Sequence record: NC_028847.1
Reading direction: 5' to 3' (one strand)
DNA: 64,000 nucleotides
Source of the DNA: Escherichia phage QL01
Below the pieces are notes generated by a model. It worked only from the letters and a program-made list of their open reading frames with translations, was not told the origin of the DNA and made no database searches. The position numbers were made by a program, and so were the translations under genes. Shown here piece after piece: positions 5,796 to 45,429 of the stretch. Every line of letters starts with the position of its first letter. Position 1 is the stretch's first letter.

Positions 5796-6062
5796 TTAAT
5801 CCTTTGGAGTCAATTCAATAGTGAAGTAGAAATTAGCGTTCTCAACATGATAACGGTAATCTACGTTATTGTCAGGAGAAGTGAATTCAATATTCCTGAC
5901 GTTAAGTGGGTCAATATCAATAGGAAGACCTTTAACATCCCGTAATATCAATTTAATAAAATAAGGGAGTGCTTCGAAGTCTTCCATTCCATCTAAAAGT
6001 GGAGTGATATTAATCTGATGTTCCATATAAAAAATCCAGTTCACCAACTTTAGGTTCGGCAC
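5796..6062 (-). CDS. hypothetical protein (true start probably internal; overlaps 3' end of gene 55)
   Basis: 88-aa minus-strand ORF; start uncertain. Confidence 0.35.
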
Positions 6063-6567
6063 TCTTATCAGACCCTGGTGCTTTAGTTAAAGAGGTTTCA
6101 TACTGAGTCATTTTGTCGTAGATATCTTGGATAAAGGTTTCATCTGCAATACCTACCATGTCGTCATCATTACTGTCATAGACATTATGGACGAAGTAGC
6201 TATATTTCTTTGCCATTTCTTTACGTTCTTTTTTGATACGCTGAACGAAGGCATTAAAACAAGCCATAGTGATATATGCATGTGGGTTGTCGTATTTTGT
6301 TTCGTCGAAGTTGTGAAGACCTTTAATCGAAGCTTCGATTCCATCAGCAATCATTTCTTGCTTCCAAGATTGGGTATATCCTGAGAAGTTGAAACGTTTA
6401 CTTAGTCCTTCAGCAATGAGCATAATAGCCAAGCCGATAACGTCGTTCTGGCGAACTATTTTATTAGGATCGGTATTTTCTCTGAGTTCTGTTTTCCATT
6501 GGGTGATAGCTTTCAGAAGCTCCTTATTATTTACATAGTTATTTTTAGTCAGTTTAATTTCGGTCAT
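6010..6567 (-). CDS. 55: late-transcription sigma factor gp55
   Basis: 185 aa, same length as T4 gp55; N-terminal NYVNNKELL and [45 protein letters not shown] block are T4 gp55-like. Confidence 0.88.
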
Positions 6568-9611: not shown

Positions 9612-10085
9612 TCATTTAAGCGATTTCCTCAGTTGTTTTTTAAATGAATCGACCATTTGTTTCTTAGTGTCAGATTCATTATAAGTCATTCCATGTGAAA
9701 GCATTTCAGCAATCATTTCTTCCTTACCTAACCTGCTGAACTCTTTGGTTTTATCAGGAACGAAATTAGGATGGATATTGTTTTCAGTATAATCAGCTTT
9801 CAGATAGACCAGCAAATTCTCTAACCATTCGAGGTAGTCAACGTTTTGACCTTTAAGACCAGAACGGTTGAACTTATGCTTCATTTGTCCTTCTGCAGCA
9901 TTGCACAGATTACATAGTAAACCACGAACCTTACCGGCTTTTGGCCCGTTCAATTCATGGTCGTGGTCAAGGTGGTTACTTTGAACATCAGGGTTTAATT
10001 CACGTTTACAAATCAAACACTTACCACATTGTGCATCATAAAGTTTTTGTTTTTCTTCTTTGTATAATTTGCCGGTCAACAACAT
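9612..10085 (-). CDS. 49: endonuclease VII (Holliday junction resolvase) gp49
   Basis: 157 aa, same length as T4 endo VII; N-terminal MLLTGKLYKEEKQK and zinc-binding CxxC...HDHELNGPKAGKVRGLLCNLCN block. Confidence 0.92.
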   Translation of the reverse strand: MLLTGKLYKEEKQKLYDAQCGKCLICKRELNPDVQSNHLDHDHELNGPKAGKVRGLLCNLCNAAEGQMKHKFNRSGLKGQNVDYLEWLENLLVYLKADYTENNIHPNFVPDKTKEFSRLGKEEMIAEMLSHGMTYNESDTKKQMVDSFKKQLRKSLK

Positions 10086-10120
10086 AATAAACCCTTACCA
10101 TTATTAGATAAGGGTATTTA
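10086..10120 (-). promoter_or_regulatory. hairpin (ACCCTTA/TAAGGGT) immediately upstream of gene 49 start, preceded by TAATAAATA (late-promoter-like, one mismatch)
   Basis: Plus-strand aaacccttaccattattagataagggtatttatt; parallels known hairpin control of T4 gene 49. Confidence 0.3.
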
Positions 10121-10330
10121 TTATTTTTCAAATGTACTATAAAACGAGCGATGCAACCGTTTAAATTGACGAATCATCTTTTTAGTAGGACGGGTGTATA
10201 ACCCTACACAAGTGGCCATAAACTGATCAGTAGGACTTCCTTTAATAAGAAGTTTCCAGACTTTACCGCCATTTAACTTTTCAGTATAAATCAGTTCAGT
10301 TTTCATAGTAAAACCCATATTCCATATCAA
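10121..10330 (-). CDS. hypothetical protein
   Basis: 69-aa minus-strand ORF. Confidence 0.35.
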   Translation of the reverse strand: MIWNMGFTMKTELIYTEKLNGGKVWKLLIKGSPTDQFMATCVGLYTRPTKKMIRQFKRLHRSFYSTFEK

Positions 10331-26169: not shown

Positions 26170-26225
26170 TTTTAATCTCCTGTAGTTGATAGGTCTATAG
26201 TATCATGACTACAGGAGATGTAAAC
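26170..26225 (-). promoter_or_regulatory. PeSL-like early promoter cassette upstream of denV (IR CTCCTGTAG/CTACAGGAG sequestering SD)
   Basis: Core 26186-26205; gtaaac 26220-26225; arms 26177-26185 and 26209-26217. Confidence 0.6.
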
Positions 26226-27327: not shown

Positions 27328-27808
27328 ATGCTTTCCAAGTACCTGTTTTAAATGTTGAAATCACGCGCTTAGCACGATTAGGAGTTTGTTTATACCAACG
27401 GGATTGAGCCAGGTTAACTGCCGCATCGTTCCAACGTTTCTGTTGGAGCATACGTAAAGAGTTAGTGAACCCTGCTACGCCTGCTTCACCCATTTGGAAG
27501 ACCATGTTAATTAAAGCACAACGACGAACTTCGTCCAGTACATCATAAACAGGTTTCAATTTAGGATTACGCAGAATAGCTCTACGAGCATTTTCAACCG
27601 ATTGGTTAAAGAGTTGTTCAGCTTCAGCCATAGTAATACGACCATTACAAACTCGACCCATAAGCTTATCAAGTTCAGCACGAGCAACATCTTTAGAAGG
27701 GTTCTTAGTAATCAATTGGCCAATACCAATAGTCCAATAACCTTCAGTGTCTTTATAAAGATTTAAATCAAGACCTTCGTCTTGACGTAACATATCAAAA
27801 ATATCCAT
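27314..27808 (-). CDS. e: endolysin (T4 lysozyme e family)
   Basis: 164 aa, colinear with T4 lysozyme; catalytic E11/D20/T26 equivalents in [30 protein letters not shown]. Confidence 0.95.
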
Positions 27809-27810
27809 AA

Positions 27811-27832
27811 TACCTCCTGAGTATAGGAGGTA
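27811..27832 (-). promoter_or_regulatory. SD-sequestering hairpin in endolysin leader (CCUCCU-loop-AGGAGG)
   Basis: Plus-strand tacctcct gagtat aggaggta: perfect 8-bp IR; the minus-strand AGGAGG arm is the SD 3 nt before ATG 27808. Confidence 0.6.
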
Positions 27833-27838
27833 TTTATA
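27831..27838 (-). promoter_or_regulatory. late promoter TATAAATA positioned to start transcription inside the endolysin hairpin
   Basis: Plus-strand tatttata at 27831-27838; same arrangement as described for T4 gene e. Confidence 0.55.
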
Positions 27839-37292: not shown

Positions 37293-37460
37293 CTCAAATA
37301 AAATTAAGTAAAGTAAGTTTGATTAATAGACCTTGTCTATTATGAAAGGTTCTTTGAGGGAAGAACCTTTGGTAATAGAGGGTATTAATGATAGAGTAAT
37401 AATAACACATTACTCTTAAAGCATATTACTATTTTTAGGAATAGTCTGGTCAAATTTGAT
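37293..37460 (-). promoter_or_regulatory. 168-nt non-coding spacer with three inverted repeats (10-bp AAAGGTTCTT/AAGAACCTTT; 8-bp AGAGTAAT/ATTACTCT; TAGAC/GTCTA)
   Basis: No ORF; perfect IRs at ~37355-37380 and ~37395-37420. Confidence 0.3.
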
Positions 37461-41115: not shown

Positions 41116-41766
41116 TTATTTTATAAATTCACGTAGTCTTACTGGTGTCATAAAAGGCCATTTGGCTATAGTTGGTTTTATCCAGTATCTTTCGTGGCAT
41201 GTAGCTTTAAATGCCCGAACCATATCCTTGGCCTCTTCTATAGTATCCACACCAAATTGTTCACAAGTTTCCTTTCTGGCTTTATCCCATCTCCGTTTAG
41301 AAAGCTCCGCTTGGAGTTCTTTATTGGCAAAACGGCCATTATTCCTATCATGAGTGGTTCCTTTTGTAGGACTCCATCCTCGTCCCTTTACAAATCCTTC
41401 AGGAATCGGTTCACCCGGAAACAGCTTAATACACTTCTTGCCATTATTATAATAAACCTTTCCTGTTTGGGTTGCTGTGATATTCTCAGAGTGCTTACGT
41501 TTAAGCCAGCCGTAAAGCTTATTAGAACGACGAGGGCCTTGAGTCATTGTCATAGCTGCAAAAGTTAGACCAGGATGTCCTGGATGCATTTTAACTAATA
41601 GTTGATGTGCTAAATAATGTTCTTCAGGAGTTAAATCAACTAAGTTTGTAGATTCATCACCTCCACCCATACATCTAGGTAAAATATGATGAGATTCGGT
41701 ATAACAGGATAGTGCTCGTCCTTGAGCACGTGTAATTAATGAAGAATATATTTTCTGGTAATTCAT
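41116..41766 (-). CDS. HNH family homing endonuclease, free-standing between genes 2 and 3
   Basis: HNH motif ESHHILPRCMGGGDESTNLVDLTPEEHYLAH; C-terminal basic NNGKKCIKLFPGEPIPEGFVKGRG module; ATG overlaps gene 2 stop (TAATG). Confidence 0.75.
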   Translation of the reverse strand: MNYQKIYSSLITRAQGRALSCYTESHHILPRCMGGGDESTNLVDLTPEEHYLAHQLLVKMHPGHPGLTFAAMTMTQGPRRSNKLYGWLKRKHSENITATQTGKVYYNNGKKCIKLFPGEPIPEGFVKGRGWSPTKGTTHDRNNGRFANKELQAELSKRRWDKARKETCEQFGVDTIEEAKDMVRAFKATCHERYWIKPTIAKWPFMTPVRLREFIK

Positions 41767-42602
41767 TATGCCTTCTTCCAAACTTTCTGAGCTGAATAAC
41801 GCTTACCTTTCGATACAAATTGCTGAAGTGGTAATCCTATTACATTAGCCCAATCAGATGGTTTTATCTCTACTAAAGGTCCCTTAATATTTCCAGGGAT
41901 ATAAGCCTTAATCATCACGTCGGCGCCAGCGAATCCTTTTACCTTACTCCAATCGATTTTTAATTTAGTCGAGTTCGTAATGGTAGGCGTACTCGCGTAT
42001 TGCTTCAGCAATTCTTCCAGAAATTGCTGACGTGCTTTAGGTGGAATATAGTGTAAGTTCAGTCCGTACATTAAATTATGCTTACCTAACCCAAGATAAA
42101 TTATTAAAGGATATTTGTCCCAGTATGGTAGGGTATCCTTATGTTTGGCATCATAGATATAAGCATAAAGCTTACCAGGAGACGGTTTAGATACCTGGTG
42201 TCCACGAATTCCTTTCTTTAATGTTTCTGTAAACCATTTAGCTGATTTATTGTTTACGGCAGCGCCTTCGTTAGCAATCTTATCGCGAATACTCTTTCTA
42301 AAACTATTCACCAAAATTAATTGACGTTCGGCTTTGGTTAATTTATTGCCAGGTTTCTTCTGAAGTTTTTCAACCTGTACAGCAGTTTTAATTCGACTCG
42401 AGTATCGAGACATCGCAGATGTAAAGCTAGAATACTTGATGCCTTTATCTTCAGCGAATTTCTTAGCCGAAACACCTTTAGCCTTAGCGTTGGCATATTC
42501 AACGCCTAAAGTTATCCATTGTTGTTCTGAACGAGTAGGCTTGGAACCTTTTGTAGTTTCAGTAGCCTCGTTGATGTAAGAAAATATACTCATCCTTTCC
42601 AT
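41766..42602 (-). CDS. 2: DNA end protector gp2
   Basis: 278 aa, T4 gp2-like length and position. Confidence 0.8.
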
Positions 42603-43039
42603 CCTAATTTTTTCAGTGAGTTTTCGGTAATCAATCTGAAATTAATTCCCATTTTATCTGCTGTAGCTTTAGCAGCTTTCCATTTATCTTTATTTACACT
42701 CCATGTATAATGTTCGTTGATATATCTCTTTTTAGCAGCTGTAGTCATTTTAGCAGGCGCCGCTGGAGGATGGGTCTCTTTAAAAGGTTTGACTTCGAAA
42801 AAGAATTGTTGACCATTGTCGAACTTCACCCAGAAGTCCATAAAATACCGACGTTTCTTTCCATCAGCGTTACTAAAATATGGAATCACAACCTCTTCCG
42901 AGTTCCACTGGACGACATTAGGATGGTTGTCAAGCCAACGCATAAGCCATGCTTCCCAAGAGGAACGATATTGGATTTTCTTCCAATCACCTTTATATTT
43001 TTGTAAGTTTGTAGGTTTAAATTTCCCTGAGTAGGCCAT
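42590..43039 (-). CDS. 4: head completion protein gp4
   Basis: 149 aa; divergent from gene 53 across a shared late-promoter region as in T4. Confidence 0.8.
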
Positions 43040-43049
43040 AGTGCCTCCT

Positions 43050-43057
43050 TATAAATA
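43050..43057 (+). promoter_or_regulatory. late promoter TATAAATA for gene 53
   Basis: Exact T4 late consensus; 27 nt upstream of ATG 43085. Confidence 0.6.
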
Positions 43058-43064
43058 TTAATAT

Positions 43065-43072
43065 TATTTATA
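43065..43072 (-). promoter_or_regulatory. late promoter TATAAATA for gene 4
   Basis: Plus-strand tatttata; exact consensus on minus strand. Confidence 0.6.
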
Positions 43073-43084
43073 CTCGGAGGCACT

Positions 43085-43687
43085 ATGCTCTTCTCATTTT
43101 TCGATCCTATAAATTACGAATCAAAAACAGTCAAGCCAGATTCCGGCTCATTAACTGATGCCGATGTACTGAGCGTACCGATGACTGATATATTTAGAAA
43201 CTATAAAGAATATTTTGATAAAGTGGCTAAAAATTATACACTTAAAACATATTATATCAGTGGGGCCCCTCGTCCAGAAGAATTAGCCCATCAACTTTAT
43301 GGTAACGTGCAATTATATTGGGTTTTATTGATGTGTAATAACGTATATGACCCTTATTACGGCTGGATTACAGGCCAAGAATCTGCGTATCAAGCAGCTA
43401 TTCAACGTTATGCTACTGCAGGCGGAAACCAAGTCCTTTATCATGTCAATGAAAAGGGTGAGAAATTCTGGAATCTAGTAAATACTCCGGAAAATCCTTA
43501 TACTTGGTACGATAAAGGTGATACAGAAAAACGTTATCCTCAATATGAAGGTCCTTTGGCTGCAGTAGATATTTACGAGGACGCCATTCGTAAAAATGAA
43601 TATAAGCGCGAAATAAAGATTATAGACCCTAATGACATCGAGTCCTTTGTTTCCGCTTTAATTAGAGAAATGGAGAAAGCCCTCTAA
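43085..43687 (+). CDS. 53: baseplate wedge protein gp53
   Basis: 200 aa; first gene of plus-strand late module. Confidence 0.85.
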   Translation: MLFSFFDPINYESKTVKPDSGSLTDADVLSVPMTDIFRNYKEYFDKVAKNYTLKTYYISGAPRPEELAHQLYGNVQLYWVLLMCNNVYDPYYGWITGQESAYQAAIQRYATAGGNQVLYHVNEKGEKFWNLVNTPENPYTWYDKGDTEKRYPQYEGPLAAVDIYEDAIRKNEYKREIKIIDPNDIESFVSALIREMEKAL

Positions 43688-45429
43688 TGATTAACATGTC
43701 TGATAATGTAAGTTGGTTCGTCGGTGTAGTTGAAGACCGAATGGACCCACTCCAACAAGGCCGAGTACGCGTGCGCGTATGGGGTATGCATCCATATGAA
43801 AAAGTACAAGGCCCTGTAAAAGGCCTTCGTACAGAAGATTTACCATGGATGTCGGTATTAATGCCTACATCTTCTGCCTCTGTTTCAGGTATCCAAACCG
43901 CTATGACTGGTATGGTCCCCGGTACACAAGTTTATGGTCACTTTCTTGATAAGTGGAAATTAAACGGACTTGTCCTTGGTACATACGGTTCCGCTTCAAG
44001 ACAGAAGGCTAATCCTAATGAAGGGTTTAGTGACCCTACAGGCCAATATCCGCTTTATTTAGGTAACGATGCTGCTGCTTTAAACCGAGGTGGTGAAGTT
44101 GGATACGATGCCACTTCTAACGTAATACAAGATGCAAACACTGATGTAGGTATTAATCCTGACGGGTTGGATTTAAGTCAAGTCAAACCAGACGATAATC
44201 CTAATTTCACAATAGAAAACATGCTTCATCGTGATGAAGGGCTTAGACTGAAGGTATATTGGGATACCGAAGGTTATCCTACTATAGGTATAGGCCACCT
44301 TATCACACCACAACCTATTAGAGATATGAATCGAATAAACAAAATATTATCTAATCAGGTAGGACGAGAAGTTAAAGGTAACCCTGGTGCAATATCAATG
44401 GATGAGGCTTCTAAATTATTCCAAGAAGACCTTAAAAAAGTCCAAAACGATATAGGTCGGCATAGTGTTGTAGGTCCTGTTTACAATAAAGAAAACCGTT
44501 CAAGACAAATGGCTCTTGAAAACATGGCTTTCCAAATGGGATTAGGTGGATTGGCTAAATTCCGTGGAATGCTTAGTGCAATGCTAATAGGCGATTATAA
44601 AAAGGCATTTGAGGAAGCTCGTAATTCAGTATGGTTTAACCAAACTAAAGGTCGCGCATCAAGGGTGTCAATGATTATCCTCACAGGTAACATGGAATCA
44701 TATGGTATTATGGCCCCTAAAGAAAGGTCATTTAATGGCCGTTCGTATAGAATGATTCAAACCTTTGTGGCCCCTACAAATTCAGACCCTGCCGACCCGT
44801 GGACTCCAGAAGACACAAGGATTCTTTTTAAAGAACCTGATTCTAGTTATAAAGGCGAATATCCATATGTCCAAACCATGCAAACTGAAGGCGGGCATAT
44901 CCAAGAATTCGATAATACCCCAGGGCAAGAACGATACCGTTTAATCCATCCTACCGGTAGTTATGAAGAAGTTGCTCCTGATGGACGTAAAACTTCTAAG
45001 ACGGTAGCCGATGGTTATTATATGACCCAAGGCGATTCAAATACTTATGTTGGTGGTAATAATAAAGTCAACGTTGGTGGCGATGAAACCTATTATAATA
45101 TGGCAAACGTGCGTCGTCAGACTGATGGAAACGAAACCATCCATATTCGCGGTAATGAAGAGAAAACTGTAGAAGGTAATGGCACCCTTCGTGTTAAAGG
45201 TAATGTTACTGTTATTGTTGAAGGAAATGCTGATGTTACTGTTAAGGGTGATGCAACTACCTTAGTTGAAGGTAATGAAACTCGTACGACCAATGGTAAT
45301 TTAAATTGGACAGTAAACGGTACCGTTTCTTGGACTTGTGCAGGTGCGTGGTCCGAGACTATGGCTTCAATGAGTTCTATTGCATCTGGTCAATATACTA
45401 TTGATGGTTCGAGGATTGACATTGGCTAA
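43687..45429 (+). CDS. 5: baseplate central spike with lysozyme domain gp5
   Basis: 580 aa; internal T4-lysozyme-like domain (HRDEGLRLKVYWDTEGYPTIGIGHL); C-terminal VxGNxxV beta-helix repeats. Confidence 0.93.
   Translation: MINMSDNVSWFVGVVEDRMDPLQQGRVRVRVWGMHPYEKVQGPVKGLRTEDLPWMSVLMPTSSASVSGIQTAMTGMVPGTQVYGHFLDKWKLNGLVLGTYGSASRQKANPNEGFSDPTGQYPLYLGNDAAALNRGGEVGYDATSNVIQDANTDVGINPDGLDLSQVKPDDNPNFTIENMLHRDEGLRLKVYWDTEGYPTIGIGHLITPQPIRDMNRINKILSNQVGREVKGNPGAISMDEASKLFQEDLKKVQNDIGRHSVVGPVYNKENRSRQMALENMAFQMGLGGLAKFRGMLSAMLIGDYKKAFEEARNSVWFNQTKGRASRVSMIILTGNMESYGIMAPKERSFNGRSYRMIQTFVAPTNSDPADPWTPEDTRILFKEPDSSYKGEYPYVQTMQTEGGHIQEFDNTPGQERYRLIHPTGSYEEVAPDGRKTSKTVADGYYMTQGDSNTYVGGNNKVNVGGDETYYNMANVRRQTDGNETIHIRGNEEKTVEGNGTLRVKGNVTVIVEGNADVTVKGDATTLVEGNETRTTNGNLNWTVNGTVSWTCAGAWSETMASMSSIASGQYTIDGSRIDIG

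Follow-up and report, generated by a model that had tools for sequence, protein, structure and literature searches.

The 45-bp spacer that separates genes 4 and 53 in Escherichia phage QL01 is very probably the orthologue of the T4 4/53 spacer, a minimal bidirectional late control region for which the extended arms of its palindrome would not be required. It lies in a 64,000-nucleotide stretch of sequence record NC_028847.1 (the window), and would hold four functional pieces and little else, namely two late promoters and two ribosome-binding sites. The TATAAATA boxes of the promoters would be recognised by RNA polymerase carrying gp55, together with gp33 and the gp45 sliding clamp, and the outer inverted repeat would come from two strong Shine-Dalgarno (SD)-AUG regions that point away from each other. 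The observation behind the original prediction, a palindromic spacer with a late-promoter motif on each strand, was confirmed, and its interpretation was supported in part.

The 1.3 kb around the spacer matches Escherichia phage LQ5 at 100% identity and WG01 at 99.9%, and by its sequence the source phage is a T4-like coliphage of the JS98/WG01 type, genus Dhakavirus. To the left of the spacer, gene 4 (42590..43039, - strand; annotated as gp4 in WG01) encodes a head completion / head closure protein of 149 aa, with 62% identity to T4 gp4 and matches to phrog_218 ('head closure', E 2e-63) and PF08722. To the right, gene 53 (43085..43687, + strand) encodes the baseplate wedge subunit of 200 aa (PF11246 Phage_gp53, E 9e-73; phrog_232; WG01 annotation), and gene 5 follows it. 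The identity with T4 gp4, the Pfam and PHROG matches and the WG01 annotation bear out the assignment of genes 4 and 53 as the two neighbours. Each of them leads one of two diverging late blocks in the WG01 annotation. The window also contains gene 55 (6013..6567, - strand), found by tblastn with WG01 gp55 at 99.5% identity over 185/185 aa, whose product is the late sigma factor that would read both boxes in trans, and the N-terminal 190 aa of the gp45 clamp (2-571, - strand). The PF08722 match of gp4, annotated as a 'head completion' protein, is to a TnsA-like endonuclease N-terminal domain (E 3e-24), and gp4 is named head completion nuclease in some database records.

The spacer reads CAT-AGTGCCTCC-T-TATAAATA-TTAATAT-TATTTATA-CTC-GGAGGCACT-ATG. 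The left arm, AGTGCCTCC, and the right arm, GGAGGCACT (43076-43084), are perfect 9-bp inverted repeats, as had been predicted; the left arm occupies 43040-43048, one base more than the 43041-43048 first assigned to it. When the start codons CAT/ATG are included, the arm complementarity comes to 12 bp (43037-43048 / 43076-43087). Each arm is the SD and start region of the gene on its side, again as predicted, and reads GGAGGCACU-AUG in both: the left arm is the translation initiation region of gene 4 (43037..43048, - strand), with the SD GGAGG 4 nt before the AUG, and the right arm is that of gene 53 (43076..43087, + strand). The 12-mer GGAGGCACTATG has two sites in the 64-kb window, and both are the palindrome arms. 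With 21-nt arms that are 86% complementary, the palindrome ranks first among the local inverted repeats of the window. Imperfect complementarity (43028-43096) was observed to reach as far as codon 4 in both genes (ATGGCCTACTCA versus ATGCTCTTCTCA, 6/9 after the ATG). The second-ranked local inverted repeat is at 37336-37379, with 19-nt arms (TCTATTATGAAAGGTTCTT / AAGAACCTTTGGTAATAGA), 89% complementary, and a 6-nt loop.

Between the arms lie two TATAAATA boxes, present in the sequence exactly where they had been placed. The box at 43050..43057 on the + strand, taken as -13 to -6 from its sequence and its likeness to T4, is assigned to a putative rightward late promoter for gene 53 (P53), and the box at 43065..43072 on the - strand, where the + strand reads TATTTATA, to a putative leftward late promoter for gene 4 (P4). 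The boxes are on opposite strands, 7 bp apart, within a 45-bp spacer between two late structural genes, and together with the gap they form a 23-bp core of A/T only (43050..43072). The segment just 3' of the + box (43058-43064) is A/T throughout, and no conserved -35 element was found.

Late promoters of T4 consist of an 8-bp box on the non-template strand, at -13 to -6 (PMC1524935), and show a preponderance of A/T downstream (PMC2988020). The two sites of the window resemble these gp55/gp33/gp45-dependent promoters in the 8-bp box at -13 to -6, the lack of a -35 element, the A/T-rich downstream segment and the place 5' of virion genes; the boxes are perfect, their position is conserved, and gp55 and gp45 are encoded. 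They differ in that the two promoters, known here from sequence, are interleaved, each lying in the initial transcribed region of the other. The identification as late promoters was thus upheld: by position and conservation both boxes fit the T4 type, from which we infer promoter activity.

Conservation of the boxes was evident from an alignment of 16 types of 4|53 spacer, collected from protein-anchored loci in T4, Dhakavirus, Gaprivervirus, CC31-like phages, Tegunavirus, Krischvirus and Acinetobacter T4-like phages. No block of this alignment is invariant except the two boxes, and the mean column identity is 57%. On the + strand, TATTTAT is unchanged in 16/16 spacers, and the + box is kept as [T/A]ATAAATA in every T-even lineage examined, several lineages having AATAAATA. 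The T at -13 of the late box is poorly conserved in T4 relatives (PMC1524935), and A at -13, found at 9/50 T4 late promoter sites, is the commonest natural variant (PMC2988020). A facing box pair with a gap of 6-14 bp occurs in Dhakavirus, Gaprivervirus, CC31-like phages, Krischvirus, Acj9, Acj61 and other lineages. Two wider searches added no T4-like sample: the matches listed by an IMG/VR scan for TATAAATA-N5-13-TATTTATA were unrelated contigs, many of them giant-virus bins, and an alignment-based gp4 search returned mostly distant environmental relatives in which an adjacent gp53 was not detected.

The T4 4/53 spacer (NC_000866, 77338-77384) has orthologous flanking genes, opposite-strand TATAAATA boxes 7 bp apart with the rightward box on the left, and strong SDs flanking the boxes, in 47 bp as compared to 45 bp in the window. 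In T4 and RB51 it reads CAT-tggattctcc-t-TATAAATA-gataata-TATTTATA-aac-aggagggccc-ATG. It differs in its arms, which share only CTCC(T)/(A)GGAG, and in its weak hairpin (-14.6/-16.6 kcal/mol). Both T4 sites are reportedly in the published list of T4 late promoters of Miller et al. 2003. No promoter features were found at the 4/53 spacer in the T4 GenBank and RefSeq records, and full-text literature searches found no paper that discusses the 4/53 promoter pair. As judged by these sequence comparisons, the layout shared with T4 is ordinary, conserved T-even genome organisation and is already known.

With the + box to the left of the - box, the two promoters are face-to-face and overlapping, and not 'back-to-back' as had been proposed. 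If each box is -13 to -6, the left box (43050-57, +) would start the gene 53 mRNA at an A at ~43063 and the right box (43072-65, -) would start the gene 4 mRNA at an A at ~43059, so that transcription from 43063(+) and from 43059(-) is predicted to cross over 5 bp. The predicted leader of gene 53 is the 22-nt AUUAUUUAUACUCGGAGGCACU, that of gene 4 the 20-nt AAUAUUUAUAAGGAGGCACU; both are A/U-rich, and at their 3' ends a strong SD, GGAGG, precedes the AUG by 4 nt. The claim that the two leaders would be nearly identical agrees with these predictions (AUUAUUUAUACUC-GGAGGCACU-AUG for gene 53 and AAUAUUUAUAA-GGAGGCACU-AUG for gene 4). The other boxes in the window give leaders of 16-24 nt to an SD-preceded start, and the predicted 20 and 22 nt are within this range. 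Because the promoters face each other with their starts inside the palindrome, each predicted late mRNA carries one arm only.

The same geometry would make the promoters compete, each box doubling as the A/T-rich melting and initial transcribed region of its partner. gp55 reads the flipped non-template bases -12, -9 and -8 in the open bubble (PMC7892883), and therefore the two bubbles must overlap. Open complexes at P4 and P53 should then need the same DNA, from which we infer mutual exclusion, with one direction firing at a time. The polarity of the gp45 clamp on DNA decides which transcription direction is activated; at the 4/53 spacer, clamp orientation and not a repressor may set the direction of firing. 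Overlapping face-to-face promoters of bacteria and plasmids are similar in that the starts cross and RNA polymerase at one excludes the other, but the promoters in the window are -10-only and of a type activated by a tracking sliding clamp. Face-to-face is the usual layout in the sample and is not obligatory. The sole exception found is in one lineage (L277/L278), where the boxes are back to back with a 4-bp overlap (TATTTATAAATA) in a 66-bp spacer.

The 4-53-5 junction was also observed to be a hot spot for homing endonucleases across relatives (L122 KpV477, L123 phiR1-RT, L002 IME540 and L034). An HNH gene separates 53 and 4 in KpV477 and phiR1-RT, IME540 carries a Seg-like gene in the 53-5 interval, and the 4-53 interval of L034 is enlarged by a 665-bp insertion. 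The endonuclease gene of phiR1-RT begins at the usual gene 4 start position, with the palindromic promoter spacer retained (CAT-AGCTGCCTCC-tt-AATAAATA-ctattat-TATTTATA-ctt-cGGAGGCTGT-ATG). The window has a homing endonuclease ORF of 221 aa elsewhere, at 41116-41781 (- strand) between gene 3 and gene 2 (phrog_655, E 2e-56). WG01, despite its 99.9% identity around the 4/53 spacer, has a gap of just 82 bp at this position. Over its first 111 aa, the ORF product shares 45% identity with the HNH endonuclease of Yersinia phage phiR1-RT.

In the arms, complementarity of CCTCC with GGAGG is automatic for two diverging strong SDs. Beyond this core the palindrome is, on the comparison of relatives, lineage-specific, and any function of it is putative. 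Imperfect arms were found in the Dhakavirus phages JS98, Bp7, ESCO10, UP19, AnYang, dhaeg and CLB_P2 (AGTTGCCTCC / GGAGGCCCT), in VR5 (AGTCGCCTCC / GGAGGCTCT) and in IME341 (AGTCGCCTCC / GGAGGCCCT), and arms identical to the perfect ones of the window were found only in the WG01/MX01/IME540 group within the genus. T4 arms have only CTCC/GGAG in common. The proposed comparison with T4 and its relatives therefore held for the box layout, which is shared, but not for the perfect 9-bp arms, which are absent from T4 and imperfect in most Dhakavirus. The arm-arm duplex energy is -22.7 kcal/mol in the window, -12.4 in T4, and -3 to -9 in CC31-like phages, L251, Acj9 and Acj61. The arm changes in sister taxa are uncompensated, which argues against strong selection for pairing. 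In vB_EcoM_005 the arms are AGTCGCCTCC / GGAGGCACT; since they differ from those of the window by one single-base deletion, in the left arm, a perfect palindrome is one mutational step away. The perfect 9 (12)-bp arms of the WG01/MX01/LQ5 sub-lineage would then most likely come from a single-base change 'correcting' an imperfect palindrome.

Perfect arms were found in one other lineage. In Krischvirus (pEJ01 and L249) they are 14 bp long and of unrelated sequence, CATTTTAGCACCCT / AGGGTGCTAAAATG (AGGGTGCTAAA-ATG), and evidently arose independently of those in the window; in Krischvirus L250 the arms have one uncompensated mismatch. Given the SD, chance identity is expected at ~1/256 for the 4 extra bases of the window and at <1e-4 for the ~7 extra bases of Krischvirus, and two independent perfect-arm cases among ~15 lineages are therefore more than chance. 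Some mutational (templated correction) or selective force may thus act on the arms, and to call them a 'by-product' may be an understatement. A common optimal start-region sequence was rejected as the source of identical arms, as GGAGGCACTATG occurs nowhere else in the 64 kb and the Krischvirus arms differ.

The broader proposal, that in WG01-type Dhakavirus and in Krischvirus the diverging ribosome-binding regions were made exact reverse complements of each other non-passively, we regard as possible but rather unlikely. Two causes are candidates. One is selection, in which a 12-14-bp helix would keep gene 4 (and 53) from being translated from any RNA running across the spacer. The other is mutation templated by hairpins, occurring repeatedly at the palindrome of the promoters. 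In T4, mutations that 'correct' imperfect palindromes on a hairpin template form a known class. A mutational cause of this kind is favoured in our analysis because the box pair already forms a hairpin and T4 shows templated palindrome correction; templated mutations by strand switching have been described (PMC3016281). If the proposal is true, the spacer would show in nature how a palindrome can grow outward from a facing promoter pair, and if the arms were selected, it would amount to the T4 'late promoter inside a hairpin' switch in a symmetric form that works both ways.

Selection for pairing would be expected if the palindrome were a bidirectional translational gate, in which a hairpin in read-through RNA would bury the downstream SD and AUG and the late RNA would be translatable. 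The predicted structures fit such a gate. RNA that spans the spacer folds at -27.9 (+) and -27.7 (-) kcal/mol (z ~ -7), and 0/200 shuffles were as stable. This hairpin is possible only in RNA reading through the spacer, as the late RNA would start in the loop and lack the 5' arm, and where it forms it could hide the start site of gene 4. The 15-nt start region has a mean pairing probability of 0.8-0.9 in the read-through RNA versus 0.37-0.57 in the predicted late RNAs, which are weakly structured (-5.4 and -7.6 kcal/mol). The expectation of a strong hairpin in read-through RNA was thus borne out by folding; the two SDs would not pair with each other, as had been suggested, but one SD would pair with the complement of the SD of the other gene. 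An Rfam search matched the region to no family, the best model being a generic miRNA-precursor hairpin at 20.8 bits versus a threshold of 60. Termination was rejected as a role for the hairpin: a bidirectional intrinsic terminator is not consistent with a loop region of 27 nt, with no T run abutting either arm, and with a terminator scan that did not report the palindrome.

The gate would have its precedent in T4 genes e, soc, 49 and I-TevI, for which the paradigm is documented, with an anti-SD arm 5' of the late start, the SD/AUG arm 3' of it, and a late RNA without the 5' arm (PMC3014915). In the window, genes e and 49 carry late-box/anti-SD hairpins of this kind, with local stems of 10 and 9 bp as compared to 12 + 8 bp at the 4/53 spacer. 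There are differences from the T4 cases: the anti-SD arm of the 4/53 spacer is the complement of the SD of the neighbouring gene, so that the arrangement is symmetric; the arm is 5' of the box, and not between the box and +1; and the hairpin is not conserved in relatives, in a place where read-through RNA is only putative. Genes 4 and 53 are also absent from the published list of hairpin cases (PMC3014915).

The details of the e and 49 sites are as follows. Upstream of gene e (27808-27838, - strand), the late box TATAAATA is followed by the anti-SD arm CCUCCU (TATAAATA-CCTCC...AGGAGG-N4-ATG), and upstream of gene 49 (10085-10122, - strand) the late box AATAAATA is followed by the anti-SD arm CCCUUAUC; each arm follows its box directly and pairs with the SD. 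T4 translational control at e and 49 seems, from these sequences, to be conserved in QL01. At denV (start 26180), a hairpin with 17-nt arms (26170-26224, - strand; -22.8 kcal/mol, z -5.4) buries the denV SD and embeds a sigma-70-like promoter, TTTACA-16-TACTAT, with the predicted transcript start inside the loop. This site looks like the logic of a 'promoter inside an inhibitory hairpin', here with a non-late promoter.

A source of read-through RNA can be suggested in one direction. Early and middle T4 transcription is all in the direction of gene 4 (PMC2988020), and a consensus scan gave a candidate sigma-70-type promoter, CTGACG-17-TATAAT, inside gene 5 (45092..45120, - strand), from which transcripts could run toward gene 4. 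It is at the T4 oriE-equivalent position; a T4 TTGATG-17-TGtTATAAT site beside the annotated oriE has the same gene 5 offset. For gene 53, in contrast, no rightward early transcription is known. A terminator-like hairpin in gene 53 at 43150-43132(-) was considered as a block to read-through and rejected, as a variable pair is C:C or U:C in relatives and T4 has none comparable. An antisense ORF in the 5' end of gene 5 (43691-43846, - strand) resembles T4 repEB (44% over 45 aa), a likeness that may reflect only conservation of gene 5 on the opposite strand.

The comparison with relatives speaks against the gate. The weak T4 fold has z-scores of only -0.7 and -2.2, several lineages have almost no arm pairing and show little difference between read-through and late RNA, and uncompensated mismatches occur in sister taxa, both in JS98-type phages and in Krischvirus L250. 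Conservation of the structure in relatives, which is a criterion for an inhibitory hairpin, was not found, as arm pairing ranges from -22.7 to -3.4 kcal/mol across lineages. The CCTCC/GGAGG pairing would be expected at any two diverging strong SDs. Even with the independent evolution of perfect arms in Krischvirus in its favour, we consider the gate improbable; it would be at most a lineage-specific bonus and not the reason for the region, which is better accounted for by the minimal late control region proposed above.

A role of the palindrome as DNA is very improbable. It would act as a cruciform or be bound by a dimeric protein, for instance an A/T-binding protein of late promoters such as DsbA or a factor of replication or recombination, and might be linked to the nearby oriE-equivalent origin and the strand switch. 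The palindrome outranks every other local inverted repeat of the window, with a centre rich in A/T that would make extrusion easier. The cumulative GC skew, profiled over 30-56 kb, has its minimum at the 4|53 spacer, and the AT skew changes sign there (~42000-44000), at the point where the coding strand switches. T4 oriE is ~2 kb to the right, with origins lying near transcription switch points (PMC3016281), and DsbA sites overlap two T4 late promoters (PMC2988020). However, the change of coding strand explains the skew switch, and no protein is known to need the palindrome. The arms vary freely in close relatives and the boxes and SD cores are kept, a pattern that fits promoters and ribosome sites and not an operator.

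It is scarcely credible that the boxes are chance A/T-rich sequence and that genes 4 and 53 are transcribed from elsewhere: TATAAATA occurs 9 times in the window versus 7.15 ± 2.85 expected from shuffles, with no enrichment, so that the count, being that of chance, has no evidential weight, and several copies lie inside genes without a plausible target, but both boxes are conserved among spacers of such low average identity, the spacer is only 45 bp long and flanked by the first genes of diverging late blocks, and the leader lengths agree with those of the other boxes in the window.

These results leave the present picture of late gene expression in T4 unchanged. Their value for annotation is that the records of the WG01, LQ5 and JS98 group are without promoter features, and predicted late starts and leaders are now given. 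The perfect arms and their Krischvirus counterpart are a small evolutionary curiosity, which may reflect either correction of the palindrome from a template or selection to mask the start regions. As a pair of putative late promoters, the spacer offers a clean example from nature of two promoters, both -10-only and clamp-activated, that face each other within 23 bp of pure A/T, and it would be a convenient template for testing the choice of direction by clamp polarity and mutual exclusion.
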